NCBI GenBank assembly: GCA_031425655.1
Contig: JANPJS010000117.1
Location: 1-22,095, forward strand
Source: Abditibacteriaceae bacterium
GTDB lineage: Bacteria; Armatimonadota; Abditibacteriia; Abditibacteriales; Abditibacteriaceae
Reading direction: 5' to 3'
Length of the DNA: 22,095 bases
In this document: positions 1-22,095 of the stretch, piece after piece
Position numbering within the stretch: the stretch's first letter is position 1
Layout: each line of letters begins with the position of its first letter
Notes under the pieces: model-generated
The model's database searches: none
Seen by the model: the letters and a program-made list of their open reading frames with translations, nothing else
Told to the model about the DNA's origin: nothing
Position numbers and translations under genes: made by a program

Positions 1-63
1 GTTTTGAGTTTTAAGTTTTGAGTTAACTTCAACTCAAAACTTAAAACTCAAAACTCAAAACTC
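1..63. repeat. Palindrome of tandem heptamers (GAGTTTT)n/(AAAACTC)n, truncated by the window start
   Basis: 1-24 GTTTTGAGTTTTAAGTTTTGAGTT is the exact reverse complement of 31-54, with a 6-nt loop. Extra units run to 63. It begins 2 nt after the acpP stop. Confidence 0.95.
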
Positions 64-65
64 TA

Positions 66-305
66 TCAGGCTGTTCCTGCCTTTTCGTCAATGTATTCCA
101 CTGCGGCACCGACGGTGCTCAGTTTTTCGGCGTCTTCGTCGGGAATTTCGACTTCAAATTCCTCTTCAAAACGCATCACCAGTTCGACCACGTCGAGCGA
201 ATCGGCGCCCAAATCTTCGACGAAACGAGCCTGCGGCGTCACGATGCCCGCTTCTACGCTCAGTTGATCGGCCACGATTTCGCGGACTTTATCAATAGTT
301 GCCAT
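66..305 (-). CDS. acpP: Acyl carrier protein
   Basis: 79-aa acidic protein with the [14 protein letters not shown] phosphopantetheine-Ser motif. GGAG SD upstream; follows fabG. Confidence 0.97.
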
Positions 306-353
306 GATGGATTCTCCACTCCCAAAAATTGTCTTTGCGACGAATTACCCTTT

Positions 354-1088
354 TTACATAACCAAACCGCCGTCAACATTCAAGACCTGACCCGTGATAT
401 AGCGCGCTCCGGGCGATGCCAAAAACAGCGCGACATGGGCTACATCGTCCGGTTCGCCAAGCGCGCCAAGCGGCACGTTTTGCAAAAGTGCAGTCTTGGC
501 TTCGTCTGTCATATCGGCGGTCATGTCGGTAGAAATGAAGCCGGGCGCGATGGCATTGGCGGTAATTCCACGGCTGCCCAACTCCTTCGCCACCGACTTG
601 GTAAAACCAATCAAACCGGCTTTGGAAGCCGCGTAATTGGCCTGTCCGGCGTTGCCGATCTGCCCGATGACCGACGTAATGGTGATAATGCGCCCGGCGT
701 TGGCTTTGAGCATATGCCGCGCGACGGCTTTGGTGCAATAAAACGCGCCGGATAAATTCACATCAATCACGTTCTGCCATTGTTCGAGTTTCATGCGAAT
801 CAGCAGCCCGTCCTGCGCGATGCCGGCGTTGTTGACCAAAATATCAATTTTGCCGAAATCGCCGATGCTTTGCTTGACCGCCGCGTCTACGGCATCGGCG
901 TCGCTGACATCGGCGGCAATCGCAAGGGCTTTGCGGCCCAAAGCGCGAATTTCTTCGGCCAGTTCTTCGGGCGCCGAACGCGCCAAAAGCACGCAATCGG
1001 CGCCGTTTTGCGCCAATTTTAAAGCGATGGCGCGCCCAATGCCGCGCCGCGCGCCGGTAATGAACGCGACTTGATTTTCGAGTTGCAT
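354..1088 (-). CDS. fabG: 3-oxoacyl-ACP reductase (SDR family)
   Basis: TGARRGIG, LVNNAGI, YAASK and GQVLNVDGG motifs; fab context. Start placed at ATG 1088 (MQLENQ) because the 1121 start lies inside the repeat hairpin. Confidence 0.95.
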   Translation of the reverse strand: MQLENQVAFITGARRGIGRAIALKLAQNGADCVLLARSAPEELAEEIRALGRKALAIAADVSDADAVDAAVKQSIGDFGKIDILVNNAGIAQDGLLIRMKLEQWQNVIDVNLSGAFYCTKAVARHMLKANAGRIITITSVIGQIGNAGQANYAASKAGLIGFTKSVAKELGSRGITANAIAPGFISTDMTADMTDEAKTALLQNVPLGALGEPDDVAHVALFLASPGARYITGQVLNVDGGLVM

Positions 1089-1099
1089 AATTTGATTTT

Positions 1100-1171
1100 C
1101 ACCACAAAGACACGAAGACACAAAGATTTTTCAAGAATTGGTTTTCTTTGTGCCTTCGTGTCTTTGTGGTG
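1100..1171. repeat. Palindrome with three octamer units per arm (CACAAAGA/CACGAAGR), CACC...GGTG ends
   Basis: 1100-1126 pairs with 1145-1171 (27 bp, 1 mismatch) around an 18-nt AT-rich loop. It fills the fabD-fabG gap. Confidence 0.95.
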
Positions 1172-1174
1172 GAT

Positions 1175-2056
1175 TTAATTGTCCGTCGTTTCCACGCTGA
1201 CGGATTTGTCAATGCGCTTGACCAAGCCGGCCAGCACGTTACCGGGGCCGAGTTCGTAAAAGTTAGTGGCGCCGCCTTCGATCATGGCGCGGATGGTGTC
1301 CGTCCAGCGCACCGGATTCGTCATTTGTTCGCGCAAGGCGGCTTGGAGGTCGGCGGCGGCGGTGGCTGGGCGCGCGGTGACGTTTTGATAAACCGGAATT
1401 TGCGCGTCTTGAAAGGGCGCGGCGTCAATGAGCGCGGCCATTTGCGCGTCGGCTTCGCGCATCAACGGCGAGTGAAACGCGCCGCTAACGGCCAGTTTCA
1501 CTGTTATTTTGGCGCCTGCGGCTTTGGCGGCGTGCATCGCGGCATCAATAGCGGCGCTTTCACCGCTGATGACGATTTGGCCCGGCGAATTGAAGTTGGC
1601 GGGCACGACGGCGCCTGCATCCGCAACGTTGTTCAGAACCGTTAAAAGCTGCTCGTCGCCCAAACCGATGATGGCCGCCATCGCGCCGGGCGGCGCCTGT
1701 GACATCAGTTCGGCGCGTTTTTGCACCAAACGCAGCGCGACCTCGAAATCCAACGCGCCCGCAGCGACTAAGGCGCTGTATTCGCCCAAAGAATGCCCGG
1801 CGGTCATCGCGGCGCTGATTCCTTCGCTTTGCGCCTGCTGCCAGTGCAACACGCCGACGGTGAGCAAGGCCGGTTGCGCGCGGCGCGTGTCGGTTAGCTC
1901 TTCTTGCGGCCCGTCGAAGCACAGTTTTGCGAGATCGTAGCCCAAAATCGCATTGGCGCGCTCGAAAAGCTCGCGCGCGGCGGGCGAACTGTCGAACAGC
2001 GCGCGGCCCATGCCGATTTTTTGGCTGCCCTGTCCGGGAAATAGGAAAGCGTTCAT
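1175..2056 (-). CDS. fabD: Malonyl-CoA:ACP transacylase
   Basis: FPGQGSQ, GHSLGEY (catalytic Ser), NFNSPGQIVISG, SGAFHS and ELGPGNVL motifs. Confidence 0.96.
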   Translation of the reverse strand: MNAFLFPGQGSQKIGMGRALFDSSPAARELFERANAILGYDLAKLCFDGPQEELTDTRRAQPALLTVGVLHWQQAQSEGISAAMTAGHSLGEYSALVAAGALDFEVALRLVQKRAELMSQAPPGAMAAIIGLGDEQLLTVLNNVADAGAVVPANFNSPGQIVISGESAAIDAAMHAAKAAGAKITVKLAVSGAFHSPLMREADAQMAALIDAAPFQDAQIPVYQNVTARPATAAADLQAALREQMTNPVRWTDTIRAMIEGGATNFYELGPGNVLAGLVKRIDKSVSVETTDN

Positions 2057-2058
2057 GG

Positions 2059-2135
2059 AGGTGGTTGGGTGGTTGGATGGTTGGGTGGTTGGGTGGCTTG
2101 AATAACCACCTGACTACCCAACTACCTAACCACCT
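2059..2135. repeat. Imperfect palindrome of tandem octamers (GGTGGTTG)5/(YAACYACC)4
   Basis: Five units at 2060-2099 and four degenerate inverted units at 2103-2134. It overlaps the last codons and TAG of the methyltransferase and ends 2-3 nt from the fabD ATG. Confidence 0.9.
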
Positions 2136-2703
2136 TCTTCGCTTGAATGATGTAGTGATACGGGCCGATGTCTTCGAGGCTTTGCACCGCGAAACCGGCG
2201 TTTTCGACCAGTTGGCGCGCGTCAGCGTGTTCGATGCGCTGTGTGTTGGGCGGGCCGGGCTGCGATTCTTCGTCGGCCCACAGCCATTCGATGAGAATCA
2301 GGCGCCCGCCGGCTTTCAGCACGCGCGCGACTTCTTGCAAGTGCTTTTCCGGCTCGGCGCATTCGTGCAGCGTGTTGGCGTGGAAAATCACGTCAACTTC
2401 GGCGTTGTCCAGCTCAAATTCGTTTTCGCGGCACGGAAGCGTGAGAATCCGCTCCCAGTTATCGCGGCGGGCACGCAAAATTTGCAGCATCGCCGGTTGC
2501 ATATCGAGCGCGTAAACCATGCCGCGCGGTCGCACCACTTTCTCGATTTCAAAAGTGAACCAGCCGGTTCCGCAGCCGATTTCGGCCACGCGCGAGCCGG
2601 CAGGAATCTGCGCCGCTTCTACGATTTCGCGCGGGTTATTCCATTTTAGCCGCTCGGTCGCATCAAGTTTTTGTGCTTGCGAAACGTCGAATTTTTGGGA
2701 CAT
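2122..2703 (-). CDS. Class I SAM-dependent methyltransferase
   Basis: Motif I VAEIGCGTG, ALDMQPAML, VDVIF, RVLKAGGRLILIEW; 193 aa. Confidence 0.9.
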   Translation of the reverse strand: MSQKFDVSQAQKLDATERLKWNNPREIVEAAQIPAGSRVAEIGCGTGWFTFEIEKVVRPRGMVYALDMQPAMLQILRARRDNWERILTLPCRENEFELDNAEVDVIFHANTLHECAEPEKHLQEVARVLKAGGRLILIEWLWADEESQPGPPNTQRIEHADARQLVENAGFAVQSLEDIGPYHYIIQAKKVVR

Positions 2704-2793
2704 GAAAATAATGTGGAGACTTTATGAAATTTTTACCGAAGTCAACTGCTTATTTAACCGGAGTTTTGCTTTATCTACAAGCGCGGGACGGTG

Positions 2794-2833
2794 AAAAAGA
2801 AAGGGCACGCTCAATCGAGCGCGCCCTTTCTTT
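2794..2833 (-). terminator. Intrinsic terminator after the six-repeat protein gene (could act in both directions)
   Basis: AAAGAAAGGGCACGCTC-AATC-GAGCGCGCCCTTTCTTT stem with A/T tracts, 12 nt past the stop at 2846. Confidence 0.8.
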
Positions 2834-2845
2834 ATCATCGGCTAC

Positions 2846-4546
2846 TTAAGCCGGGGCCGCTGTGAAATTAACGCCAGTCAGACTCGCGTTATTGACGGTC
2901 ACGGTGCTTTTTTGCGGCGTGAACCGGGTGTTGTTTTTGTCGGGCGTGATGGTGTAAGTGCCCGGAGCAACACCGGTCAGGGTGTAATTGCCGTTGGCGT
3001 CGGTCAAAATGCCGTCGTTGACTTCCCCCGTGCTTTCGATGCGAACGCCCGCTACAGGCACGCCCGCGCCGTTCAAAACCCGCCCGCTAATGGTGAGGCT
3101 GCCGGAAGGCGCGCCGCCATAAGCCGTGAAATTCACATTTGTTACGTTAGCATTGGTCACCGACACCGAGCGATAAAGCGGACGAAAGGCGGTATTATCC
3201 TTATCGGGTGTAATGACGTAGTTTCCGGCGGCAACGCCAGTCAGAACGTAGGTGCCGTTGGCATTGGTTAAAACGCCGTCGTTAACTTGGCCGCTGCTTT
3301 CGATGCGAACGCCCGATACAGGCGCGCCGTTGCTGCTCACCACGCGCCCACTGATGGTGAAATTGCCGTTGCCTCCGTCCACGGTAACAGCAGTGAAATT
3401 CACGCCGTTCACACTGGCGTTGGTGACGGACACGTTGCGCACCACAGGTGTGCAGCGGACATTCTTTTTGTCGGGCGTGATGACGTAAGTGCCGGGTGAC
3501 ACGCCGGTCAAGGTGTAGAAGCCGTTGAGATCGGTTTGCACGCCGTCGTTGACTTCCCCGGTGCTTTCGATGCGAACGCCGGGAACGGGTTGTCCCGCTG
3601 CATTGAGGACGCGCCCGCGAATCGCGTAACGGCCAACCGATGCGCCGCCGTAGGCCGTGAAATTGACGTTGGTTACATTGGCCGTCGAAACCGTCACGGT
3701 GCGAGACGGCGGGCTGAACTGCGTGTTGTCGCGGTCGGGCGTGATGGTGTAAGTGCCCGGCGCGGCGCCGTTTAGAATGTAGTTGCCGTTGGCGTCGGTT
3801 AGCACGCCGTCGTCAATTTCGCCGGTGCTTTCGATGCGCACGCCCGAAACCGGCACGCCGCTGTCATTTACAACCCGCCCTCTGATGATAAAACCGGCGC
3901 CAGCTCCGCCACCGGAAGCGGTAAAGTTCACTCCCGTGACATTGGCGTTGTTTATTGTCACCGAACGGGTTTGCGGCGTGAAACTGGTGTTGGTTTTATC
4001 GGGCGTGATAACATAAGTGCCCGGCCCGGCGCCGGTGAGCATATAATTGCCGCCGGCGTCGGTGAAAACGCCGTCGTTGACTTCGCCGGTGCTTTCAATT
4101 TTGACGCCCGAAACCCCGCCACCCACCGAATTCAGCACTCTTCCGCTGATGCTGAAATCGCCGCCTGCGCCAACGCCGGAGGCCACGAAATTCGCTCCGG
4201 TCACGTTGGCATTAAGCACTTGCACCGTAAGCGATGACGGATTAAACGTCGTGCCATCTTTGTCGGCGACAAGCGTATAGGCGCCGGAAGCAGCACCAGT
4301 CAGCGTGTAGAAACCACTGGCATCGGTGAAAACCCCGTCGTTAATCTCGCCGGTGCTTTCGATTTTTACATCGGCTACGCCTTGTCCGGCAGCGTTGGTT
4401 ACGCGCCCGCTGATGTCGAAGGCCTGCGCGCTGGGCGCGCTGAAACCGAGATTGCACATCAAAGCAATCGCCATCAAGGCCAGCGGCCCGGCGAAAGATT
4501 TTCTGCGCGCCGACAGTCGCATTTGCGATTGAAAAAAAGCTAACAT
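2846..4546 (-). CDS. Secreted protein of six tandem ~88-aa carboxypeptidase-regulatory-like (transthyretin-like beta-sandwich) domains
   Basis: GAGGAG SD before ATG 4546; signal peptide ending AQA. Six repeats of ISGRV..G..V.GV.IESTGEVNDGV.TD.NG.Y.LTG...G.Y.ITPDK....F.P....V.V.NANVT.VNFTA. Confidence 0.85.
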   Translation of the reverse strand: MLAFFQSQMRLSARRKSFAGPLALMAIALMCNLGFSAPSAQAFDISGRVTNAAGQGVADVKIESTGEINDGVFTDASGFYTLTGAASGAYTLVADKDGTTFNPSSLTVQVLNANVTGANFVASGVGAGGDFSISGRVLNSVGGGVSGVKIESTGEVNDGVFTDAGGNYMLTGAGPGTYVITPDKTNTSFTPQTRSVTINNANVTGVNFTASGGGAGAGFIIRGRVVNDSGVPVSGVRIESTGEIDDGVLTDANGNYILNGAAPGTYTITPDRDNTQFSPPSRTVTVSTANVTNVNFTAYGGASVGRYAIRGRVLNAAGQPVPGVRIESTGEVNDGVQTDLNGFYTLTGVSPGTYVITPDKKNVRCTPVVRNVSVTNASVNGVNFTAVTVDGGNGNFTISGRVVSSNGAPVSGVRIESSGQVNDGVLTNANGTYVLTGVAAGNYVITPDKDNTAFRPLYRSVSVTNANVTNVNFTAYGGAPSGSLTISGRVLNGAGVPVAGVRIESTGEVNDGILTDANGNYTLTGVAPGTYTITPDKNNTRFTPQKSTVTVNNASLTGVNFTAAPA

Positions 4547-4674
4547 GAAACTCCTCAAGCTGTAAATCACGGCGATTGCCGCACTTGTGTTTTATCGTAT
4601 CGTATCGGAAATCACAATAGAAGAAAGCGTCAAGATACCTCAAAAGAGCGATGGCGGACATTGATAGCCGCAGC

Positions 4675-5730
4675 TCAAACGGCGCGCTGATCGTGCCACT
4701 TAATCGCCGCCGCCGCCCATGTCAAACCAGCGCCGAAGCCGACGAGGACGACGTTATCGCCGTGTTTGATGCGTCCCTCGTCGCGCGCTTCGCGCAGCGC
4801 CATCGGAATGCTGGCCGCCGAGGTGTTGCCATATTTATGGACGTTGACGAAAACCTTGTCCATCGGCAGATTCAAGCGTTTGGCGGCGCTTTCGATGATG
4901 CGAATATTCGCTTGATGCGGCACCAATAAATCCACTTGCGAGGGTTCAAGACCGGCGTTCTCGACCGCGCGCAGGGCCGATTCGCCCATCACGTTAACCG
5001 CAAAGCGGTAAACCTCGCGCCCGTTTTGGTAAACGCGCTTTTGGCCCGGCGCACCTTCGAGCGTGACCGGCAAATTTTCGGAGCCGGACACGTTTTCAAC
5101 TTTGAGCAGTTCGCCGCCCAATCCGTTAGCGCCCAAATCAATGCCCAGCACGCCGAAACCTTGTGGTGCGGCCTGCAAAACGGCAGCTCCGGCGCCGTCG
5201 CCGAAAAGCACGCAAGTATTGCGGTCGCTCCAATCCATGACGCGCGACATCACTTCAGCGCCGATAACCAGCGCAGTATCAATGGCGCCGCTGGCGATGA
5301 ACTGCTGCGCCACGACGAGCGCGTAAACGAAGCCTGAGCAGGCCGCTTCCAAGTCGAAAGCGGCGGCATGACAGCCCAAACGATGCTGCAAAAGCGCCGC
5401 AGTGGCTGGGAACTGATAATCGGGCGTGCTGGTGGCGCAAATGACGAGCTGCACCGCCGCCGGGTCTACATTGGCGTCTTCGAGAGCTTGACGCGCGGCT
5501 TTTTCGGCCAAATCGGCGGTGGTTTCGTGTTCTGCGGCAACGCGCCGCTCGGCGATTCCGGTGCGCGAGCGAATCCACTCATCGTTGGTGTCAACGAATT
5601 GGAGCAAATCGGCGTTAGTCAGCACGCGTTCGGGCGCGTAAAGCCCCAATCCGGTGATCGCGGCAGTGCGCGCAGACGGCAACGGGCGGTGCAAAGCAAC
5701 GGGCGGAGCGGCGGAGACTTCGTGGGTCAT
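4675..5730 (-). CDS. fabH: 3-oxoacyl-ACP synthase III
   Basis: WIRSRTGI, AACSGF (Cys), LFGDGAGA, VPHQAN (His), YGNTSAASIP (Asn), GFGAGLTW. Confidence 0.97.
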   Translation of the reverse strand: MTHEVSAAPPVALHRPLPSARTAAITGLGLYAPERVLTNADLLQFVDTNDEWIRSRTGIAERRVAAEHETTADLAEKAARQALEDANVDPAAVQLVICATSTPDYQFPATAALLQHRLGCHAAAFDLEAACSGFVYALVVAQQFIASGAIDTALVIGAEVMSRVMDWSDRNTCVLFGDGAGAAVLQAAPQGFGVLGIDLGANGLGGELLKVENVSGSENLPVTLEGAPGQKRVYQNGREVYRFAVNVMGESALRAVENAGLEPSQVDLLVPHQANIRIIESAAKRLNLPMDKVFVNVHKYGNTSAASIPMALREARDEGRIKHGDNVVLVGFGAGLTWAAAAIKWHDQRAV

Positions 5731-5733
5731 GTT

Positions 5734-5806
5734 GGGAATTGAGAATTAAGAATGGAGAATCAAGAAATTAGTTTTCTTCATTCTCCATTCTCAATTCTAC
5801 ATTCTC
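5734..5806. repeat. Imperfect palindrome of tandem heptamers (GAGAATK)n/(MATTCTC)n
   Basis: GGGAATT GAGAATT AAGAATG GAGAATC AAGAAA, a short loop, then TTTCTT CATTCTC CATTCTC AATTCTA CATTCTC. One arm encodes the PlsX C-terminus (ENVELRMENEEN) and the plsX stop lies at the loop. Confidence 0.9.
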
Positions 5807-6850
5807 AGTCGGCGCTTCGGATACGGCGCTTTTGATGCGCTCGACAATTCCGGCTTCGGCGACCTGCTTGGCGATGCGAATCGCCGATTGAATCGAGCGC
5901 GCATCGCTGCTGCCGTGACAAATGATGCAAATGCCGTTAACGCCGAGCAGCGCCGCGCCGCCGTAGCCTTGATAATCGAAGCGTGTGCGCAGCCGCGTCA
6001 GCGAGGGCTTGAGCAGCAAAGCGCCAAGTTTCGAGCGCATATCAGCCATTAAAGCGCTTTTCAATTCGGCGCCGAAAATCTTGGCGAATCCCTCGGCGAC
6101 TTTAAGCACAACATTACCGACGAAGCCGTCGCACACGATCACGTCAACCGTTCCCATCGCCACATCGCGCCCTTCGACGTTGCCGTGAAACGTGTATTTG
6201 CCCTTCGCAGCGTTTTCTTTGAGCAGCTTGAAGGCGGCTTTCGTAAGATCGTTGCCTTTACCTTCTTCTTCGCCGATGGACATCAAGCCGACGGTCGGCA
6301 AATCGCCGGGTGCTTTGGCTTCGATGCCGGGAATAATGCCGCTGACGCCGCGCACATAAGCCGCGCCCAGCACCGCGAAGGCCGCGATGTGTTTCGGTCT
6401 GCACTCGACGTTGGCGCCGGCGTCAATCAAAACCAGAGGATGCTGCGCTGTCGGAAAAACCGTAGCAATGCCGGGCCGCTCGACGCCGGGAATGCGCTTG
6501 AGACGAAATAAGGCCTCAGTCGCGGCCACGCCCGTATTGCCGGCGGAAATCACGGCGTCGGCCTTACCATCGGCGTGCAGTTGCGTGGCGACCGCGCACG
6601 ATGAATCGGGCTTTTTGCGCCGCGCGTGAATCGGCTCTTCGTGCATCTCGACGATTTGCGAGGCATGATGAATCGTCACGCCGGACGGCAAAACGCCGCT
6701 GCCGGGAGTTGTGCCCAAGCAGCGGCGGATGGCGTCTTCTTGTCCGACGAGGATAACTTCAATTCCGAAATCGCGCGCCGCTGCGACGGCACCGGCGACA
6801 ATTTCAGCGGGGGCGCGGTCGCCGCCCATCGCATCAATGGCGATCCGCAT
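5768..6850 (-). CDS. plsX: Phosphate acyltransferase PlsX
   Basis: IAIDAMGGDRAP, ISAGNTG, DAGANVE, IGEEEGKG, VCDGFVGNVVLK, CHGSS; located between rpmF and fabH. Confidence 0.97.
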   Translation of the reverse strand: MRIAIDAMGGDRAPAEIVAGAVAAARDFGIEVILVGQEDAIRRCLGTTPGSGVLPSGVTIHHASQIVEMHEEPIHARRKKPDSSCAVATQLHADGKADAVISAGNTGVAATEALFRLKRIPGVERPGIATVFPTAQHPLVLIDAGANVECRPKHIAAFAVLGAAYVRGVSGIIPGIEAKAPGDLPTVGLMSIGEEEGKGNDLTKAAFKLLKENAAKGKYTFHGNVEGRDVAMGTVDVIVCDGFVGNVVLKVAEGFAKIFGAELKSALMADMRSKLGALLLKPSLTRLRTRFDYQGYGGAALLGVNGICIICHGSSDARSIQSAIRIAKQVAEAGIVERIKSAVSEAPTENVELRMENEEN

Positions 6851-6854
6851 TGCA

Positions 6855-6930
6855 TTTGAGTTTTGAGTTTTGAGTTTCGAGTTTTGAGTTAATTATCAAC
6901 TCAAAACTTACAACTCAAAACTCAAAACTT
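6855..6930. repeat. Palindrome of tandem heptamers (GAGTTTT)n/(AAAACTC)n, same family as 1-63
   Basis: About five GAGTTTT units, loop AATTATC, then about five AAAACTC units. It fills the whole rpmF-plsX gap. Confidence 0.95.
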
Positions 6931-7135
6931 ATTCAGCGTCGGGGCGTTGGGCGCTGCGGTCGCGGATGGCGAGCACTTGGCGACCGTTGTAATAGCCGCA
7001 TTTGCCGCAGGCGTGGTGCGGCAATTGAGCTTGGCCGCAATGCGCGCAGGTCGAGAGAGTAACGGGTTTCGCTTTCCATTGTGCGCGGCGCGTGCGCACA
7101 CGGGCGTGTGATTTCCGACGTTTTGGCAAAGCCAT
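6929..7135 (-). CDS. rpmF: 50S ribosomal protein L32 (zinc-ribbon type)
   Basis: MALPKRRKSHARVRTRRA, CAHC...CGKCGYYNGR; canonical yceD-rpmF-plsX order. Confidence 0.97.
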   Translation of the reverse strand: MALPKRRKSHARVRTRRAQWKAKPVTLSTCAHCGQAQLPHHACGKCGYYNGRQVLAIRDRSAQRPDAE

Positions 7136-7153
7136 GATGAATCCTATTCCTTC

Positions 7154-7693
7154 TTAATTGTTTTGAGCGGGCGCGTCTGGTGACGGCTGCCACTGGGCCA
7201 GCGATTCCCAGCGCGCATCGCGCTCCTGTTGATAATTAGCTGCTTCAGGCAAACCCGGACAATCGTCCGAGCAACGCGGGGCAATCGAAACTTGCAGCAC
7301 AATCGCCTGCCGGATGAGTTCTAAAACGTCCAACGTATGCGCGTCGAACAGTGCGGCGAGTTCATCGTTGGTCAGCTCATTTTCCGGCGCGTGTTCGTCG
7401 TCAGTATTGTCAGTTCCATTCAAACGCGACATGAAAAAGCTGACCGGCGCGACAGCTTCCAAATCAAGTTCGAGCGGTTGGGCAAAGTCTCGCAAACAAC
7501 GCGCGCACTGCTGCACGATGCTGGTGGCGGCCTGACCCGTCACTACAATGTTGCGTCGTGCGTTGGCGGCGCGCACCCAGCCGCGAATCGGCGTCTTTAC
7601 TTCAAACTCGTCCAATTGCAACGGAGCGAGTTCGATGCTTTTTTCCACTGACGTGCCCGGTGCGCGCAGAATATCGGTTAAATCGAGATACAT
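7154..7693 (-). CDS. yceD: YceD/DUF177 family protein
   Basis: CARCL motif, LDVLELIRQAIVL, C..DC.GL and D.RW..L C-terminus; directly upstream of rpmF; AGGTGA SD. Confidence 0.88.
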   Translation of the reverse strand: MYLDLTDILRAPGTSVEKSIELAPLQLDEFEVKTPIRGWVRAANARRNIVVTGQAATSIVQQCARCLRDFAQPLELDLEAVAPVSFFMSRLNGTDNTDDEHAPENELTNDELAALFDAHTLDVLELIRQAIVLQVSIAPRCSDDCPGLPEAANYQQERDARWESLAQWQPSPDAPAQNN

Positions 7694-7784
7694 CTTTTCA
7701 CCTGTTTCCGGCGCGCGGGCCTGCGAAAACAGAAAGCCTGCGGCATAACCTCAGGATTTCCAGTCGTCAAATTCGCAAGTAGGG

Positions 7785-7813
7785 ATTTTAGGCGCGGGCG
7801 CCGCTTTTGTCAA
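7785..7813 (-). promoter_or_regulatory. Sigma70-type promoter of the yceD-rpmF-plsX-fabH operon
   Basis: Minus strand reads TTGACA-N17-TAAAAT, about 90 nt upstream of the yceD ATG. Confidence 0.8.
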
Positions 7814-7880
7814 GCAATGACACAGGCCGGACGCACGGCGCCGGGCCGCGCCCCCGGAAATCGCAATTGGCTCACACGAA

Positions 7881-7912
7881 CGAAAACCGGCCCAATGACG
7901 GGCCGGTTTTCG
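7881..7912 (-). terminator. Intrinsic terminator after the Tyr-Pro-repeat gene
   Basis: CGAAAACCGGCCC-N6-GGGCCGGTTTTCG perfect 13-bp inverted repeat, 23 nt past the stop. Confidence 0.75.
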
Positions 7913-7935
7913 CTTATGATGAAGCCGCTTTTAGG

Positions 7936-8676: not shown

Positions 8677-8684
8677 AAAAAGAA

Positions 8685-8766
8685 AATGCGGAACGCGAAA
8701 ACATTCCGCATTCCGCATTCCGCATTCCGCATTCCGCATTCCGCATTCCGCATTCCGCATTCCGCA
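8685..8766. repeat. Asymmetric palindrome: nine perfect CATTCCG heptamers opposite two degenerate inverted units; probable terminator of the DUF151 gene
   Basis: (CATTCCG)9 at 8702-8764 and inverted AATGCGGAACGCGAA at 8685-8699. On the minus strand the stem is followed by TTCTTTTT. Confidence 0.95.
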
Positions 8767-12326: not shown

Positions 12327-12370
12327 ACACGCGGGGCAAGATGAAAATTCATCTTGCCCCGCGTGTTTTT
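12327..12370 (+). terminator. Intrinsic terminator
   Basis: ACACGCGGGGCAAGATGAA / TTCATCTTGCCCCGCGTGT 19-bp inverted repeat followed by TTTT. Confidence 0.85.
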
Positions 12371-13738: not shown

Positions 13739-13746
13739 ATTTTAGC

Positions 13747-13857
13747 CTCTCGCAAAGACGCAAAGGCGCAAAGATTTTTAAGGGCTTTTGGCTGAAGCAA
13801 TATCGTCAGCGAAATGCAAGCAAACTTTTTCTTTGCGCCTTTGCGTCTTTGCGAGAG
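13747..13857. repeat. Perfect 28-bp inverted repeat of three CGCAAAGR octamers around a 55-nt spacer
   Basis: 13747-13774 CTCTCGCAAAGACGCAAAGGCGCAAAGA is the exact reverse complement of 13830-13857. Confidence 0.96.
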
Positions 13858-13878
13858 ATTTCAAAAGGTTAATAAAAG

Positions 13879-16287: not shown

Positions 16288-16303
16288 TTTACGATTTAAG
16301 CTG

Positions 16304-16338
16304 ACAGCCGGCGAAATTTGCGTTTCGCCGGCTGTTTC
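16304..16338 (+). terminator. Intrinsic terminator after topA
   Basis: ACAGCCGGCGAAA-N6-TTTCGCCGGCTGT 13-bp stem followed by a short T run. Confidence 0.7.
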
Positions 16339-16400
16339 ACATTGATGTATTTCACTTTTCGATCAGGTGATAGGCACCGCGACGTGCGATAATTTAAACA

Positions 16401-17378
16401 ATGTTTGGAAATGTTCCCCCCTGGGCTTGGATTGGTTTTAATGTTGTTATCTTGGCGTTGCTGTTGCTCGACTTGGGCGTTCTAAACAAGAAATCCCATG
16501 TTGTAGGAATGCGCGAAGCCTTGATGTGGACGGCGGGCTGGATTACGCTGGCGCTGCTTTTTTGCGTCGGAATTTATTTCAAGATGGAAAACGGGCAAAC
16601 GCGCGCCCTTGAATTCCTGACCGGCTATCTCATCGAATACGCGCTCAGCGTGGACAACATTTTCGTGTTCGTGCTGCTGTTTTCCTATTTCAAAGTCGCG
16701 CCCCAATATCAACACAAAGTCTTGTTTTGGGGCATCATGGGCGCTTTGATTATGCGTGCCATCATGATCGTGGCCGGGGTGGCTTTGATTCACCGCTTCG
16801 AGTGGCTCATCTATGTTTTCGGCGCGTTTTTGGTGTTCACCGGCATCAAGCTGGCGTTGCAAAAAGAAGGCGACATCGAACCGGCGGAAAACCCGCTGGT
16901 TAAAGGTGTCCGGCGCTTGATGCCTGTCACCGAGGACTATGAGAACGGCCATTTTTTCGTGATGCGCGAGGGAAAACGCTGGGCAACGCCGCTTTTTATC
17001 GTGCTGCTGATGGTTGAAACCACCGATCTGGTTTTCGCTGTAGATTCGATTCCGGCGATTTTAGCGATTTCTAAAGACCCTTTTGTGGTCTACACTTCCA
17101 ATGTTTTTGCGATTCTTGGACTGCGCTCGCTGTATTTTGCATTAGCCGGGCTGATGGGATTGTTTCACTATTTGAAACTCGGTCTCTCGGTAATTCTGAT
17201 GTTCGTCGGTGTCAAAATGCTGTCGAGCCACTATGTGCATTTGCACCCGGCGGTGTCGCTGGGTGTGATCGTGAGCATTTTAGCTGTTTCGGTTGGCGCC
17301 TCGCTTTGGCGTCCGCGCCACGACCTCGATACCGTCGAAGAAATTCTCAAACACGACGCCGATTCCGGCTCGGAGTAG
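16401..17378 (+). CDS. TerC/Alx family integral membrane protein (metal homeostasis)
   Basis: EYALSVDNIFVF, WGIMGALIMR, ETTDLVFAVDSIPA, TSNVFAILGLRSLYF; multiple TM helices. Confidence 0.93.
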   Translation: MFGNVPPWAWIGFNVVILALLLLDLGVLNKKSHVVGMREALMWTAGWITLALLFCVGIYFKMENGQTRALEFLTGYLIEYALSVDNIFVFVLLFSYFKVAPQYQHKVLFWGIMGALIMRAIMIVAGVALIHRFEWLIYVFGAFLVFTGIKLALQKEGDIEPAENPLVKGVRRLMPVTEDYENGHFFVMREGKRWATPLFIVLLMVETTDLVFAVDSIPAILAISKDPFVVYTSNVFAILGLRSLYFALAGLMGLFHYLKLGLSVILMFVGVKMLSSHYVHLHPAVSLGVIVSILAVSVGASLWRPRHDLDTVEEILKHDADSGSE

Positions 17379-17387
17379 CCGCCTTTC

Positions 17388-18143
17388 ATGCTCACTCTCG
17401 GCTCGGTTCCTTACCTCAACGCGCTGCCGCTTTATCGCACATTAGAAAGCAGCGGCGCGGCGCAGATTATTCGCATCGTTCCTGCCAAACTCGGCGCGCA
17501 TTTGCGTTCGGGCGAATGCATCGCCGCGCTGTTGCCGATTGTAGACCACTTCCGCGACCCGCAATCGTTCCTGGTTTCCGATGCCTGCATCGGCAGCGAT
17601 GGCGCGGTGCGGTCGGTTTTGCTGTTCTCGAAAGTTGCGCCGCGCGCTATTCGCAGCATCGCCGCCGACACGTCTTCGCACACATCCGTCGCGCTTTTGC
17701 GCGTTTTATTGGCCGACGTTTTCGATGCGAATCCGCCTTTCGTTGACCACGCGCCGGAGTTTGAAGCCATGCTCGCCGCGCACGACGCGGCGCTTTTAAT
17801 CGGCGATAAAGCCTTAGAAGCCGCGCAAAATGTGCCGCCAAACGTAACGATTTACGATTTAGGCGCCGAATGGAAGAAATTAACCGGCTTGCCCTTCGTT
17901 TTCGCGGCGTGGATTGCGCGCGAAATCGTGCCGGAAAATCTCGGCGCCATTCTCAGCGCCGCGCGCGACGAAGGCGAAGCGAATCTGCCGCAAATCGTAG
18001 CTGAAAACCCGATTCCCACGCGCCTGTCTCCGTCTCAAATCGAAGATTACCTGCGCCACGCCGTGACGTTTCATCTCGACGCAGCGCATCGCGCCGGATT
18101 AGCGGAGTTTCGCGCGCGGTGTGGGAAGCATGAGCTGATTTAG
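17388..18143 (+). CDS. mqnA: Chorismate dehydratase MqnA (futalosine menaquinone pathway)
   Basis: GSVPYLNALPL, GAVRSVLLFS, SHTSVALL, LLIGDKAL, DLGAEWKKLTGLPFVFAAW. Confidence 0.88.
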   Translation: MLTLGSVPYLNALPLYRTLESSGAAQIIRIVPAKLGAHLRSGECIAALLPIVDHFRDPQSFLVSDACIGSDGAVRSVLLFSKVAPRAIRSIAADTSSHTSVALLRVLLADVFDANPPFVDHAPEFEAMLAAHDAALLIGDKALEAAQNVPPNVTIYDLGAEWKKLTGLPFVFAAWIAREIVPENLGAILSAARDEGEANLPQIVAENPIPTRLSPSQIEDYLRHAVTFHLDAAHRAGLAEFRARCGKHELI

Positions 18144-18157
18144 GCACAGATGACACC

Positions 18158-18580
18158 GTGACTTTAAGTGAATTTGAAGCATGGCTTCTCAAAAATCCAG
18201 AACAATATCTCTCCACAGACCCAATTTCTGTAGATGAGGCTGCTTGTCCTACGCTACCAAGCGTTTATAGGGAATTCTTAAATCGTTTCGGGCCGCTCGT
18301 TCTTTTTGATTATTGTTTTTTGTCGCCATCTCAAATTGTCGAGATAACCAAATTCATCCACGATTTGAGCTATCCAGCAGAAGGAGTGAACTTTCATCAT
18401 TTGACACCTTTTTTCGCGCAAGGCTATGATATGTGCTACCTATGCTTTGATGGCGAGAAAATCGTAGATTTTGACCCATTGGAGCCGAGTTCAATGGAAA
18501 CCATAATTGCCGAGTCATTTGAGGAATTTTTAACCAAGTTTGTGAATGAAAAAGGCGGAGCATTTTGGCTCAACAAATAG
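18158..18580 (+). CDS. SMI1/KNR4 (SUKH) family immunity-like protein
   Basis: LPSVYREFLNRFG and IAESFEEFL motifs; 140 aa; GTG start; clearly more AT-rich than its neighbours. Confidence 0.75.
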   Translation: MTLSEFEAWLLKNPEQYLSTDPISVDEAACPTLPSVYREFLNRFGPLVLFDYCFLSPSQIVEITKFIHDLSYPAEGVNFHHLTPFFAQGYDMCYLCFDGEKIVDFDPLEPSSMETIIAESFEEFLTKFVNEKGGAFWLNK

Positions 18581-18588
18581 GAAGGCAT

Positions 18589-18647
18589 AAACACAGAGGG
18601 CGCAGAGAAATTAAAATCTCTGCGCCCTCCGCGTTCTCTGCGGTGAA
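18589..18647. repeat. Partly eroded CGCAGAG-unit palindrome between convergent genes
   Basis: GAGGGCGCAGAGA (18596-18608) pairs with 18617-18629. The right arm continues to GCGGTGAA and matches the element at 22028-22095; the left arm lacks the outer unit. Confidence 0.9.
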
Positions 18648-18653
18648 TCGAAT

Positions 18654-18791
18654 TCAATTGGTTTTGACTTGGGTCGGATTGATGCTGCCGGTTCCGGCGC
18701 CCCACGGCGTGGTGGAGTTCCAGTAGCGCACGAAAAGAACGCCGCCGATGACCATCAAAACTACTATCACGATGCTGACAATTTTCAACAT
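18654..18791 (-). CDS. Small single-TM membrane protein (45 aa), absent from the ORF track
   Basis: MLKIVSIVIVVLMVIGGVLFVRYWNSTTPWGAGTGSINPTQVKTN*; AGAGGAG SD 10 nt upstream; upstream promoter; downstream hairpin. Confidence 0.7.
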   Translation of the reverse strand: MLKIVSIVIVVLMVIGGVLFVRYWNSTTPWGAGTGSINPTQVKTN

Positions 18792-18845
18792 GACCGATTT
18801 TCTCCTCTTGCGGCGCTGGTAAAGGCTCCGAATTGCTTTACGGCA

Positions 18846-18875
18846 ATTTTAACGGTGCGAGATGGTAATGGTCAA
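18846..18875 (-). promoter_or_regulatory. Candidate sigma70-type promoter of the 45-aa ORF
   Basis: Minus strand reads TTGACC-N18-TAAAAT. Confidence 0.55.
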
Positions 18876-18991
18876 GGCATCGCGCTCATTGGCGCTGTTT
18901 GCGACCTCATTTTGCCTTCCGCAAACAGAAGGTGTGTTATAACAAGCTTAGAATAAAATCTGTCAGTTGTTGGCAATGGGAGTTGATTTCG

Positions 18992-21112
18992 ATGAAACGA
19001 TGGACGGTCTCGATGGTGTTACTGGCGGCTGTAATAAGCGTGCCGCACAGTCGCGTTTTGGCGCAGGCGAAAATAGCGGCGGGAGACACGGCTTCGCAAG
19101 TTGCCGTCACGGTCGAGGGCGACCAAGTGCGCTTCGCATCGCCCATCCCGGTGCAGGAGATGCGTGTGCAAATCGCCACGTTGAAGGGGCAAACCATCTT
19201 CGACAGCGGCGCTGTGGCTAATGCGAACGTAACGTGGAGCGGACGCGATGAGTTCGGCTTATCGGTGGCGGACGGCATCTACCTTTGCACGATTACCGTC
19301 AAAGATCGCACCGGCAAAGTGAGCCATCAAAGCGAATCCGTCGCGGTGCAGAGAAACGCCGCTTCGCCAAACGCACTGTCATCAAACTCGGTGTCGTCAA
19401 ACGCAGCAGCGCCGAGTGCGTCCGGTGTTACGGCAAGTGCAGTAGCCACGCTGACCGGGCAGGGCACCATCGGCAATATTCCCAAATGGGTCGGCATCAA
19501 CGAGTTGGCCGACTCCATCATGACCGAGAAGTCGGGCAAGGTCGGCATCAATAATCCTTCGCCTTCGGCCACTCTGCACATTATCGGTCAGGCCACAGCC
19601 GCCTCTGCCTCAACAGGGAACACGGCGGCGGCGCTGCTGATTATGAGTGGCGGCGCGGGTGGCAACGCGTCTGGCCCTTTTTCCGGTGGCACCGGAGCCG
19701 CCATCAATCTGCGGGCCGGGCCGGGTGGCAATTCGGGGGGCGGCGTCGGTGGAACGGGCGGCACTATTACTTTGATACCGGGGCCGGCGGGCACGGGGGG
19801 CAGTGGCGGCAGTATCGGTCGAGTGCTGCTCGCGCCAAACGGCGGCAACGTCGGCATTGGCACCACATCCCCGTCGTCGCTGCTGACGGTGGCGGGCACC
19901 ATTCAATCCAACAGCGCAAGCGGCAACGGTGTGTCCAGCACCACCAACGGTGGCGGCAGCTTTGCCGGTGTCTATGGCATCAGCACCGGAGCCAGCGGCA
20001 ACGGCGTGATCGGCGAAGCTAACAGCGGCACCGGTGCCTATGGCGTGTGGGGCAAAAGCACCGAGGGCCTCGGTGTGAAGGGCAGCAGCAACAGTGGCAC
20101 CGGCGTAGATGCCCAGAGCAGCAGTGGCAGCGGCGTGAGTAGCAGAAGCATCAGCGGCAACGGTGTGGAGAGCACCAGCAGTAGCGGCGCTGGCGTAAGC
20201 GCCAGCAGCAACACCGGCATCGGCGTGAGGGGCACCAGCACCAGCAGCATTGGCGTGCTGGGCACCCACACCTCTTCCAGCGATGATCCAGGCGTGAAGG
20301 GTATCACTTTTTCAGGAGCTTTCGGTGCGGTTGGAGTGCAAGGCACGGTTGCTTCCACTGGGGCGGGCGGTAGCCCGGCAGGCCCCAGTTCGGCGGGCGT
20401 GCGAGGCACCAACAACGGCGAAGGCACCGACGGCATCGGCGTTTATGGTTCGCAAGACGGCAGCGGCACCGGCGTTTATGGCTATACCCCCAGTGGCAGA
20501 GGCGTCGAGGGTTACAGTCTGAGCGGCACAGGCATTTATGGCGTCACCGGCAGTGGTTTTGCCGGGTTCTTCAGCGGCAAAGTCCAAGTCAATGGCGATC
20601 TGACGGTAACCGGCAATGTGAGCAAAGGCGGCGGGTCATTTAAAATAGACAGTCCTCTCGACCCCGCCAACAAGTATCTGTCGCATTCGTTCGTAGAATC
20701 GCCGGACATGATGAACATCTATAACGGCAACGCGACGCTCGATAAAAAAGGCGCTGCAACCGTTGTTTTGCCGAATTACTTCAACGCGCTCAACAAAGAA
20801 TTCCGCTATCAACTGACTGCGATGGGAGCGCCCGGCCCCAATCTCTACATTGCTCAGGAGATCGCCGGCAACCAATTCAAAATCGCGGGCGGCAAGCCCG
20901 GAACGAAGGTTTCGTGGCAAGTGACGGGCGTTCGGCGGGACGCTTATGCCAACGCGCATCGTATTCCCACCGAAGAACTGAAAACCGGCGCTGAGCGCGG
21001 TCGTTATTTGCACCCGGCGGCGTTCGGACTGCCCGCCGACAAAGGCATCGGATATGCCCCTCGCCCGGAATTGGCAGCAGCCAAATCCAATACGCCGCCG
21101 TCCAAGCCGTAA
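18992..21112 (+). CDS. Large exported Gly/Ser-rich fibre-like protein (FlgD-Ig-like N-domain, VGIGTT.P motifs, GVxG repeats, non-repetitive C-terminal domain)
   Basis: GGGAG SD before ATG 18992; signal peptide; WSGRDEFG..VADGIY; GKVGINNPSP and GNVGIGTTSP; many GV.G/GV.S repeats; C-terminal SFKIDSPLDPANKYLSHSFVESP domain. Confidence 0.8.
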   Translation: MKRWTVSMVLLAAVISVPHSRVLAQAKIAAGDTASQVAVTVEGDQVRFASPIPVQEMRVQIATLKGQTIFDSGAVANANVTWSGRDEFGLSVADGIYLCTITVKDRTGKVSHQSESVAVQRNAASPNALSSNSVSSNAAAPSASGVTASAVATLTGQGTIGNIPKWVGINELADSIMTEKSGKVGINNPSPSATLHIIGQATAASASTGNTAAALLIMSGGAGGNASGPFSGGTGAAINLRAGPGGNSGGGVGGTGGTITLIPGPAGTGGSGGSIGRVLLAPNGGNVGIGTTSPSSLLTVAGTIQSNSASGNGVSSTTNGGGSFAGVYGISTGASGNGVIGEANSGTGAYGVWGKSTEGLGVKGSSNSGTGVDAQSSSGSGVSSRSISGNGVESTSSSGAGVSASSNTGIGVRGTSTSSIGVLGTHTSSSDDPGVKGITFSGAFGAVGVQGTVASTGAGGSPAGPSSAGVRGTNNGEGTDGIGVYGSQDGSGTGVYGYTPSGRGVEGYSLSGTGIYGVTGSGFAGFFSGKVQVNGDLTVTGNVSKGGGSFKIDSPLDPANKYLSHSFVESPDMMNIYNGNATLDKKGAATVVLPNYFNALNKEFRYQLTAMGAPGPNLYIAQEIAGNQFKIAGGKPGTKVSWQVTGVRRDAYANAHRIPTEELKTGAERGRYLHPAAFGLPADKGIGYAPRPELAAAKSNTPPSKP

Positions 21113-21134
21113 CGCGGCGATTTAATCATGAAAA

Positions 21135-21164
21135 GGCCGGGAGCGCATCGCTCCCGGCCCTTTT
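21135..21164 (+). terminator. Intrinsic terminator
   Basis: GGCCGGGAGCG-CAT-CGCTCCCGGCC followed by CTTTT. Confidence 0.8.
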
Positions 21165-21241
21165 GATTTCTTAAAATGGTAGCGCAGGAAATAGGCGTCG
21201 TTTCACATAAACGAAATTCACCTTCCACGAACGCCGTGAGC

Positions 21242-21268
21242 GAACTTCTATGCCGCAGGATGCTCTAA
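21242..21268 (+). promoter_or_regulatory. Candidate ECF-sigma (RpoE/AlgU-like) promoter
   Basis: GAACTT-N16-TCTAA, 44 nt upstream of the dioxygenase ATG. Confidence 0.55.
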
Positions 21269-21312
21269 CGAGTAGATTCCACACGAACGAGCTGCTGCAA
21301 AAGGGATAAATT

Positions 21313-22023
21313 ATGAACTCAAAGCACAACACCGAAAACGTTCCGACGCCAACCGCATCGCGGCCCAGCCGCCGGCACTTTCTGCGACAGCTTGCTTCGG
21401 GCGTTTTGGTGGCGACCGGCAGCGTGGCTTTATGGGATAGATTCGCGTTCGCCGCAGAACTGATTCGCACGCCTCCGCAGATGGAAGGGCCGTTTTATCC
21501 CGATCATCTGCCGCTCGACACCGACAACGACCTGATTATCGTCAGCAAGAGCATCACGCCCGCTGTCGGTGCAATTACGCATCTGAGCGGGCGCATTTTA
21601 GATGCGCGCGGCAATCCTCTCAAAGGCGCGGTTATCGAAATCTGGCAGGTGGATAATCGTGGTGTTTATCTGCACTCCGCCGACTCCGGGAACCGCGAGC
21701 GCGACAAGCATTTTCAGGGCTACGGGCGTTTTGAAACCGGAAAAAGCGGCGAATATCGCTTCCGCACCATCAAACCGGTGCCTTATCCGGGACGCACGCC
21801 GCATATTCACGTCAAAGTCTCGAAAGGCAACAAAGAGCTTCTGACGACGCAGTGCTACATCAAAAACGAGCCGATGAACGCGCGCGACGGCATTTTGATG
21901 GACATCGGCGATTTGCGGCAGCGAAACTCGTTGATCGTGCCTTTCGAGCCGATTAAAAAGTCGCGCATCGGCGAGTTGTCGGCCCGCTTCGACATCGTTT
22001 TAGGCTTCACACCGACCGTTTAA
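21313..22023 (+). CDS. Intradiol ring-cleavage dioxygenase family protein (protocatechuate 3,4-dioxygenase beta-like) with a twin-arginine signal
   Basis: SRRHFL Tat motif, hydrophobic stretch and AFA; EGPFYP; EIWQVDNRGVY; FRTIKPVPYPGRTPHIH. The two Tyr and two His iron ligands appear retained. Confidence 0.9.
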   Translation: MNSKHNTENVPTPTASRPSRRHFLRQLASGVLVATGSVALWDRFAFAAELIRTPPQMEGPFYPDHLPLDTDNDLIIVSKSITPAVGAITHLSGRILDARGNPLKGAVIEIWQVDNRGVYLHSADSGNRERDKHFQGYGRFETGKSGEYRFRTIKPVPYPGRTPHIHVKVSKGNKELLTTQCYIKNEPMNARDGILMDIGDLRQRNSLIVPFEPIKKSRIGELSARFDIVLGFTPTV

Positions 22024-22027
22024 ACTT

Positions 22028-22095
22028 CACCGCAGAGACGCAGAGGGCGCAGAGAAATTTTCTTTTTTCTCTGCGCCCTCTGCGTCTCTGCGGTG
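22028..22095. repeat. Perfect 30-bp palindrome of three CGCAGAG units with CACC...GGTG ends, at the window end
   Basis: 22028-22057 CACCGCAGAGACGCAGAGGGCGCAGAGAAA is the exact reverse complement of 22066-22095, with an 8-nt pyrimidine loop; starts 4 nt after the stop. Confidence 0.96.

Follow-up and report, generated by a model that had tools for sequence, protein, structure and literature searches.

Why should a 22,095-nt stretch of bacterial DNA carry nine hairpins with arms built of short tandem units, every one of them at the end of a gene? The stretch (hereafter the window) is the entire contig JANPJS010000117.1 (C117) of assembly GCA_031425655.1 (G000; 5.98 Mb, 327 contigs, 97% complete), from an Abditibacteriaceae bacterium of the Armatimonadota. 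A first-pass annotation had described nine hairpins with arms of tandem 7-9-nt units close to stop codons, and had proposed an undescribed system of elements spread by an enzyme encoded elsewhere. All nine were found where it had placed them, each folding better than its shuffled versions (z -4.2 to -14.0; 0 of 200 shuffles as good in each case) and each overlapping a stop codon or beginning 2-8 nt from one; none carries a gene itself. In this study, we provide evidence that the nine are gene-less members of two palindromic cassette families, which likely spread by copy-and-overwrite recombination directed by the family's own protein, and we put the probability of this reading at about 0.55. 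The arms are shared with gene-bearing cassettes, each class pairs with one gene family, whole hairpins are copied without target duplication, host bases are replaced, and slots are kept while their units are exchanged.

Two hairpin classes pair with two gene families

The 1730 hairpins detected in G000 include 647 with tandem arms, a floor given that the finder recovers 6 of the 9 window elements; none of 11 hairpins had such arms in 1.5 Mb of fifth-order Markov sequence. Under our own rules on period and motif, the 647 divide into 318 of class H, 265 of class G, 32 linked to DUF559 genes, 5 RAYT-like and 27 others. Class H has a 7-nt unit (8 nt in a few) with the loose consensus RRTKNNR and a median stem of ~30 bp, and class G an 8-11-nt, CRCRRAG-like unit with fixed outer ends; the median stem over all tandem-arm hairpins is 31 bp, and the commonest unit is TTTGAGT. 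Both classes are polar, the purine arm standing first in 164 class H hairpins and second in 2 (152 ties), and first in class G by 220 to 1, the rest being ties. Five of the window hairpins belong to class H and four to class G (Table 1), thus the earlier description of the nine as unrelated in sequence has to be given up, while their membership of multi-copy families is borne out, each unit recurring at 9 to 108 loci in the genome. The loops, which had been called AT-rich, are only moderately so genome-wide (54% vs 47% in plain hairpins). A search of Rfam with the window elements gave no match.

What such arms enclose elsewhere in the genome points to the families concerned. Four-helix-bundle genes (PF05635/TIGR02436) lie between inverted tandem arrays in 7 of 7 cases in G000, and GxxExxY genes (PF13366/TIGR04256) in 8 of 9, the ninth being a weak match in a longer frame; gene-less copies outnumber four-helix-loaded ones by ~40 to 1. 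The classes sort between the two families: class H elements share 13-mers with four-helix flanks in 158 cases and with GxxExxY flanks in 1, and class G elements with GxxExxY flanks in 130 and with four-helix flanks in 1, hairpins that form part of a cassette flank being retained in these counts. In relatives (own-genome loci and one cut locus excluded), inverted arms flank 25 of 27 four-helix loci, with period 7 in 20 and period 8 in 3, and 26 of 28 GxxExxY loci, with a period of 8-11 in 25 and of 7 in none. Across named genomes of many phyla, 77 of 80 four-helix loci had flanks, among which inverted arms were found in 72 of 77 (26% in a mismatched-flank control) and period 7 in 73 of 77.

Unit and protein also change together. 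Units lay within 1 nt of each other in 14 of 14 comparisons at a protein identity of at least 80%, in 59 of 154 at 70-80%, 408 of 1421 at 60-70%, 155 of 1568 at 50-60% and 19 of 1994 below 50% (Mantel r -0.41, 0 of 999 permutations, 102 loci). This covariation means that gene and arms travel together and does not imply recognition. A quick tree of 106 four-helix proteins was poorly resolved and was not used for any count. Over 31 genomes, the density of the repeats tracks that of the genes (rho 0.67 in H and 0.58 in G), with partial correlations of 0.51 and 0.45 for the cognate pairs and 0.34 and 0.17 for the crossed ones; these genomes are related, and kinship makes the correlations overstate.

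Four candidate protein families had been named in advance, two of which, the four-helix bundles and the GxxExxY proteins, do share arms with the hairpins. The others drop out: the six Y1_Tnp (RAYT-type) genes of G000 are flanked by other palindromes and not by H or G arms, and no RVT_1 match, and no template or variable repeat of a diversity-generating retroelement (DGR), was found in the 97% complete assembly. The presence of these six genes might suggest that the hairpins are repetitive extragenic palindromes (REP) or bacterial interspersed mosaic elements (BIME) moved by RAYT (HUH) transposases. REP, REPIN and BIME systems (REPtrons, TIRtrons) likewise have a rare gene flanked by its own palindromes and gene-less copies just after stop codons, in operons and sometimes in genes (PMC3733652; here and below, published work is cited as far as its accessible text goes). 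The likeness extends to the many extragenic copies behind stops (647, median 3 nt) and to family-specific partner proteins. However, no HUH transposase of G000 has H or G arms, which instead enclose the two other gene families; the arms are tandem arrays of ~30 bp; resident elements are overwritten; and the conserved GTAG/CGTC tail is missing, by eye, from 67 class G copies. We regard movement by RAYT as very improbable.

Position at gene ends and transcription termination

By setting, 466 of the 647 hairpins lie between co-directional genes, 82 between converging and 22 between diverging genes, 24 inside genes and 53 at contig edges. In co-directional gaps the hairpin starts a median of 3 nt after the stop codon and ends 16.5 nt before the next start (29 and 90 nt for plain hairpins; start positions are uncertain in our 4733 gene calls, made with a hexamer model), so that the proposed preference for gene ends holds genome-wide. 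Ordinary intrinsic terminators, too, would lie behind stop codons and between converging genes, and the hairpin at 8685-8766 is trailed by a T run and may thus double as a terminator. The majority between co-directional genes, with the next start so close, speaks against termination, as do the T-rich tails, which are rarer in class H (41 of 255, 16%) and class G (42 of 180, 23%) than at plain hairpins (144 of 419, 34%), and the multi-copy, swapped and in-frame occurrence of the elements. The definition of an intrinsic terminator fits 8685-8766 only and not the population, and the first-pass annotation was right to doubt termination as the main role; as a general explanation it is hardly credible.

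In tRNA gene clusters, class H hairpins make up the spacers (C273:8765-9161, C215:25704-25964, C262:6836-7066), and a detected hairpin lies within 60 nt of 15 of the 59 tRNA/tmRNA genes of G000. Some arms of both classes are interrupted by an inserted mini-hairpin of 16-20 nt (C143:56280, C298:36400-36900, C150:9409-9499).

Slots are kept while units are exchanged

Window gene names rest on translation and Pfam (eleven open reading frames); acpP, fabG, fabD, fabH, plsX, rpmF, dprA and topA are presumptive names. At the rpmF-plsX, acpP-next gene, methyltransferase-fabD and dprA-topA junctions, most relatives have either a tandem hairpin with another unit or class, or a gap of a few bases. Orthologous junctions were counted in sampled parts of three relatives, namely ~1.66 Mb of the 5.3-Mb genome of G003, which belongs to the same genus, 0.3 Mb of the 6.1-Mb genome of G002 and 0.12 Mb of the 3.6-Mb genome of G008, with a classifier that made 1 false call in 150 shuffles. 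Among 167 junctions shared with G003, 44 were occupied in both genomes, 29 in G000 only, 15 in G003 only and 79 in neither; G003 was thus occupied at 44 of 73 junctions occupied in G000 vs 15 of 94 empty ones (odds ratio 8). The corresponding counts were 11, 11, 6 and 25 for G002, and 52, 19, 10 and 34 when both gaps had to be at least 45 nt. G008, which has neither gene, showed no element at 20 junctions occupied in G000.

The kept slots rarely keep their unit, which was identical at 3 of 44 doubly occupied junctions in G003 and 1 of 11 in G002. Unit distance in 31 H-H pairs equals that of random pairing (2.52 vs 2.61, p 0.29), and gradual drift of the unit at a fixed site was rejected, 0 of the 31 pairs lying at distance 1. 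Class is kept above chance (HH 35, GG 8, GH 7, HG 0, 5 other). An element in one genome faced a gap of at most 13 nt in another in 15 comparisons (13 sites), and loaded and empty forms alternate at one junction. G002 and G003 (L251, L270) have a loaded GxxExxY cassette at a site where stop and start codons overlap in G000 (C193:13437), so that a coupled junction has cleanly gained or lost a cassette. Presence/absence and unit swaps between relatives, both of which the first-pass annotation had in mind, are therefore seen.

Slots that persist across the family while sequences change would also be expected if the host maintained the hairpins for signals that they provide in RNA (RNase III cleavage sites, stabilising stems that segment operon transcripts, or translation insulators), for which any long-stem family would suffice. 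Occupancy climbs with ribosomal-protein-like codon bias (by quartile, from 3.8% to 12.7% for H and from 2.1% to 8.5% for G), an RNase III gene is present in G000, and RNase III cleaves, in vitro, the heptamer-bearing stem of the Coxiella 23S rRNA intervening sequence (IVS; PMC4990558). Mismatches on the transcribed strand favour G-U over A-C in class G stems (117 to 75, p 0.003) but not in class H stems (113 to 155; plain hairpins 105 to 83), and we rejected this test as a sign of RNA-level selection, the two classes having opposite signs. Moreover, G008 runs the same operons without these elements, a near-zero gap replaces the element in the 15 comparisons above, 18 class H hairpins lie inside coding sequence, where cleavage would be costly, and the gene cassettes are left unexplained. 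RNA signalling as the reason for the hairpins is decidedly unlikely in our view. Host selection for RNA stems may decide which slots are kept, since the same slots are taken by unrelated short palindromes in G006, G008 and G011; the own palindromes of these hairpin-poor genomes lie at L124-L125 (G006), L130 (G008) and L122-L123 (G011).

A PlsX-based metagenome search gave distant relatives only (42-50% identity; its 80 loci were left unused), and contigs from four DNA runs yielded no strain variant. The best-matching run has contig breaks at several of the hairpins, too; the elements thus fragment assemblies, and loaded cassettes may be under-counted.

Whole hairpins are copied and host bases replaced

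Eighteen class H hairpins lie in open frames of genes, including ruvC, rlmN, uvrA, a MutS-domain gene, which we take to be mutS2, a GIY-YIG gene, a helicase gene and an aminotransferase gene. One mutS2 slot (19 of 21 loci recovered by pattern) holds GACGAGT arms in G000, GGGGACT arms in G003, GGTCTTT arms in G002 and, in G001, a heptamer arm with a DUF559-type palindrome, whereas in another genus 11 genomes have a plain linker of 10 residues there; G011 and G015 have short palindromes of their own in frame in mutS2. Five codons of ruvC are replaced by 21 (as read in 3 of 10 stretches). Pairs of whole hairpins from different loci that are at least 90% alike number 35, their homology usually stopping at or near the palindrome ends, and long loops recur elsewhere in 52 of 163 class G and 39 of 96 class H cases. 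Around 141 class G elements, flanking direct repeats showed no excess. Given that host bases are replaced and that flanking repeats are in no excess, the signature is one of replacement and not of insertion with duplication; miniature transposable elements with inverted repeats (MITEs) of DDE transposons differ in that no target-site duplication signal surrounds the 141 elements and host codons are replaced at the in-frame class H sites.

Two other ways of making the arms found little support. If new arms were written around host loops that stay in place, the loops should be alike, and the signs of this are weak: hand-delimited peptide loops gave p <0.001, 0.01, 0.09, 0.62 and 0.85, the helicase match (p <0.001) coming partly from the arm and the mutS2 match (0.01) overlapping the last unit, and among 29 intergenic loops likeness did not exceed that of random ones (p 0.95). 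For a general inverted duplication of the flanks, the excess was modest (6 of 141 at 12 nt or longer).

Host processes alone (polymerase slippage, arm-to-arm template switching and gene conversion between copies) could also make and spread the hairpins, the two genes then being harmless passengers in their loops. This would account for the half of the elements that have no cognate gene in the assembly, for G026 and G011, which hold elements without the gene, and for the freely variable array length (window 8702-8766); likeness is greater between the two arms of an element than between arms taken from different elements (0.94-0.98 vs 0.75-0.89, a contrast that detection favours), and outer flanks are mirrored modestly beyond chance (mean 4.6 vs 2.6 nt). 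Passengers, however, are not expected to sort by 158 to 1 and 130 to 1, or to leave every GxxExxY locus without period 7. Other cargo was also sought between such arms in G000, and what came up was only host genes between neighbouring hairpins, besides a DUF559 gene with its own palindrome family, and genomes without the two genes are mostly repeat-poor. We therefore consider host processes by themselves an unlikely source.

The DUF559 genes, which lie beside CCCCC/GGGGG hairpins (C244:30733-31369, C144:400-861), form a third gene-plus-palindrome family, with 32 gene-less copies and 5 in frame in genes. A young composite of 200-216 nt has a class G hairpin inside fixed ends that start with TAA and finish with TTA; six copies are 91-96% alike (C33:2883-3082, C48:2997-3201, C126:21363-21578, C278:6504-6714, C286:18969-19168, C23:6971-7186), and a young subfamily has fixed TAAGT/ACTTA ends. 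The composite may have been moved by another transposase; ISAzo13, the single transposase family searched for matching ends, gave a blank, as did the control genomes.

The two proteins and a candidate mechanism

One four-helix protein of G000 matches XCC0516 (PDB 2gsc; E 3.5e-14, five chains), which is a homopentamer (PMC4990558), and another matches the Avd model weakly (20.7 bits vs a cut-off of 80). Avd is a positively charged pentamer, all five protomers of which grip an RNA stem-loop (bioRxiv 10.1101/2023.10.23.563531). The median class H stem corresponds to four to five units, a length that would suit a pentamer ring. For GxxExxY, residues D70, E80, K82, Q94 and Y98 are invariant in 26 of 26 sequences, and a sequence search of PDB gave no match; the structural model (pLDDT 96.9) has its closest folds among Cas4 and lambda-type exonucleases (Foldseek E 7e-4; best Z 7.7), and a PD-(D/E)XK nuclease fold with D...E-x-K is predicted.

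Copy-and-overwrite recombination may be pictured as follows. Each cognate protein would bind its own repeat: the four-helix bundle would do so on single-stranded arms, as a pentamer like that of Avd, and GxxExxY would nick or resect the fold-back. Where a transcribed gene junction or a resident hairpin is broken, host recombination would mend it from another family member, and the donor hairpin, whether or not it brings its gene along, would replace the resident sequence. Insertions would survive either because the fold-back keeps stop and start codons close or because RNase III cuts the stem, as shown in print for the 23S rRNA IVS.

Several points weigh against this picture. The four-helix bundle has no known catalytic site, the GxxExxY fold matches are middling with none standing out, and the role of both proteins is read from shared arms and co-occurrence. 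Gene and arms are physically linked, so that their covariation needs no recognition, and among the 31 related genomes the class H pattern is loose, its reversed control also rising. In the 97% complete assembly, 159 of 318 class H and 134 of 265 class G elements have no 13-mer in common with any loaded cassette, 6 of the 9 window elements among them. G026 has 153 clustered matches to the class G pattern and no GxxExxY match (class G arms at L276:1440-2400 lie in BIME-like clusters with repeated linkers), and G011 has H-like hairpins and no four-helix match. The unrelated palindromes in the shared slots suggest host permissiveness or selection as much as targeting. Finally, the comparisons include no strain-level pair, and no single insertion event was caught.

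Comparison with known systems

The closest relative in print is the IVS in helix 45 of the 23S rRNA of Coxiella burnetii, an S23p four-helix gene within terminal inverted repeats that contain tandem heptamers in variable number (PMC4990558). A four-helix gene between inverted repeats of tandem heptamers is what all seven G000 genes show, the Coxiella unit GACAGAT fits the class H consensus, and the distribution is scattered and apparently horizontal in both. In contrast to the IVS, all seven loaded four-helix cassettes of G000, like the window elements, sit at junctions of protein-coding genes and none in 23S rRNA; gene-less copies predominate, and a parallel GxxExxY class exists. The accessible text of PMC4990558 describes no copies outside rRNA and no mode of spread. 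The four-helix proteins also share a fold family with the Avd proteins of DGRs, from which G000 differs in having no reverse transcriptase, template or variable repeat, and in the sub-threshold Avd score.

Dispersed heptamer repeats include the cyanobacterial short tandemly repeated repetitive (STRR) sequences. Paired heptamer/octamer arrays are described in Geobacter metallireducens (PMC2700814), GGGAATC repeats in Xanthomonas and GGGGAYT repeats in Nostoc (PMC4692102), and TAACTGA repeats in Beggiatoaceae, for whose origin 'no mechanism is evident' (PMC4679880). These accounts read the arrays as regulator-binding sites, as quadruplexes or as of unknown origin, and their accessible text names no cognate protein. 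In common with G000, the published arrays comprise several unit families per genome and form inverted pairs in gaps between co-directional genes, where the purine-rich strand closely follows the stop and its complement closely precedes the start; they are accompanied by few Shine-Dalgarno sites and have some copies inside genes; the unit GGGGACT is itself present in G000. Whereas the Xanthomonas unit is kept between two species, units of the G000 type are exchanged. Defined as dispersed tandem 7-nt arrays, mostly intergenic, in inverted pairs of fixed polarity, heptameric repeats include class H (318 hairpins), and class G, at 8-11 nt, falls outside.

Exchange of units at a fixed slot has a precedent in the P6b stem of the Nostoc trnL intron, which consists of one of two heptamers (Class I TDNGATT, Class II NNTGAGT) and has been replaced wholesale several times (PMC4476775). 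Class II accommodates the G000 unit TTTGAGT, and the units of the GACGATT family come near Class I. In P6b, however, there is one slot in one intron and no agent is named in the accessible text, as against hundreds of slots, dozens of units and candidate proteins in G000.

The system thus works like REP/RAYT and is kin to the IVS that carry an open reading frame, and lacks the defining features of both. The gene-less architecture (Geobacter, Xanthomonas), unit replacement at one slot (Nostoc P6b) and heptamer arms around an rRNA four-helix gene (Coxiella) are already in print. Accordingly, 'undescribed', as the first-pass annotation had it, stands for the protein link and does not stand for the paired tandem 7-8-nt arrays (PMC2700814, PMC4692102, PMC4476775). 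A literature search, mostly without subscription papers, found no paper that ties dispersed arrays to the four-helix or GxxExxY families.

The nine hairpins of the window

The five co-directional junctions named earlier (rpmF-plsX, plsX-fabH, methyltransferase-fabD, fabD-fabG and dprA-topA) are correctly identified. The hairpin at 8685-8766 likewise lies between co-directional genes, and the outermost two, at the ends of the contig, may be clipped.

Table 1. Tandem-arm hairpins of the window
Position	Class	Unit	Location	Stem (length, identity)	z	Loci	Arms and remarks
1..63	H	GAGTTTT	2 nt after acpP stop (acpP on - strand); contig end		-7.1		Match four-helix-bundle cassette on C92 (6 shared 13-mers)
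1100..1171	G	CACAAAGA	fabD-fabG junction, 3 nt after fabD stop	27 nt, 96%	-12.4	46	No exact cognate gene in assembly
2059..2135	H	GGTGGTTG (8 nt)	methyltransferase-fabD junction		-5.7	12	Methyltransferase stop codon inside 5' arm
5733..5807	H	GAGAATK	plsX-fabH junction	35 nt, 86%	-9.4	31	
6855..6929	H	GAGTTTT	rpmF-plsX junction, overlaps rpmF stop	35 nt, 89%	-9.5		Match four-helix-bundle cassette on C92 (13 shared 13-mers)
8685..8766	H	GCGGAAT	2 nt after stop of bifunctional-nuclease-domain gene		-4.2	9	Lopsided, 9.3 units vs ~2; T run behind
13747..13857	G	CGCAAAGR	dprA-topA junction	28 nt, 100%	-7.0		55-nt loop; match GxxExxY cassette on C143 (26 shared 13-mers)
18590..18647	G	CGCAGAG(G)	between converging SMI1/KNR4-like gene and 45-codon open reading frame	19 nt, 89%	-5.1	58	Outer part of one arm decayed
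22028..22095	G	CGCAGAG(G)	4 nt after dioxygenase-like gene stop; contig end	30 nt, 100%	-14.0		

Site by site, the relatives differ in what they hold. The acpP site has other units in G002, G003, G011, G013 and G014 and a class G hairpin in G006; the fabD-fabG junction has related class G arms in G002 and G014 and unrelated fillers in other relatives. The methyltransferase-fabD gap is 7 nt in G001 and 5 nt in G013, without element, and has other units in G002, G005, G007 and G014. At least six other units occupy rpmF-plsX across the family, and class H hairpins replace the class G hairpin of dprA-topA in G002 and G003. At plsX-fabH, GAGAATK is also found in G001 and G003, and the common unit marks this as an older site; its 5' arm encodes about the last 12 codons of plsX (the C-terminal residues of PlsX are read from it at 5768-5807), and in G003 the plsX stop codon is shifted behind the second arm, where it overlaps the fabH start. 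The hairpin at 18590-18647 resembles, by eye, the arms of a GxxExxY cassette on C54, yet shares 0 13-mers with it.

Plain, non-tandem hairpins lie at 2789-2840 and 12327-12366, the latter with T runs on both strands and the look of a two-way terminator. A secreted-looking protein with six carboxypeptidase-regulatory-like repeats is encoded at 2846-4474 (-), between fabH and the methyltransferase gene, which are 8 nt apart in G001 and G003. The AT-rich SMI1/KNR4-like gene at 18158-18580 (+) is just below the Pfam cut-off and was not found beside mqnA in the relatives' stretches examined. A long Gly/Ser-rich protein with 30-nt repeats in its gene (19013-21112, +) has no Pfam match, and the start of this gene is matched at 77% in G001.

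Implications

Bacterial 7-base repeats have been catalogued for decades with no account of where they come from, and neither protein family has an assigned function. Since class pairs strictly with gene, and unit matches protein, two candidate agents and their substrates can be named. Overwriting of slots would account for motif replacements so far left unexplained in the trnL marker of Nostoc, and in ruvC, uvrA and mutS2 it would be a route to rewritten protein loops and C-termini, as in plsX here. It is possible, though on balance we doubt it, that each of two proteins that are no transposases, one an Avd-like pentamer and the other a minimal Cas4-like nuclease, reads a short-repeat code of its own, and that they write fold-back arrays, or overwrite existing ones, at transcribed junctions and within protein loops with neither reverse transcriptase nor target duplication. 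If it is true that these proteins write their own repeats, they would represent a new class of self-spreading element, one that may stand behind the heptamers of cyanobacteria, Xanthomonas and Geobacter and the IVS of rRNA.

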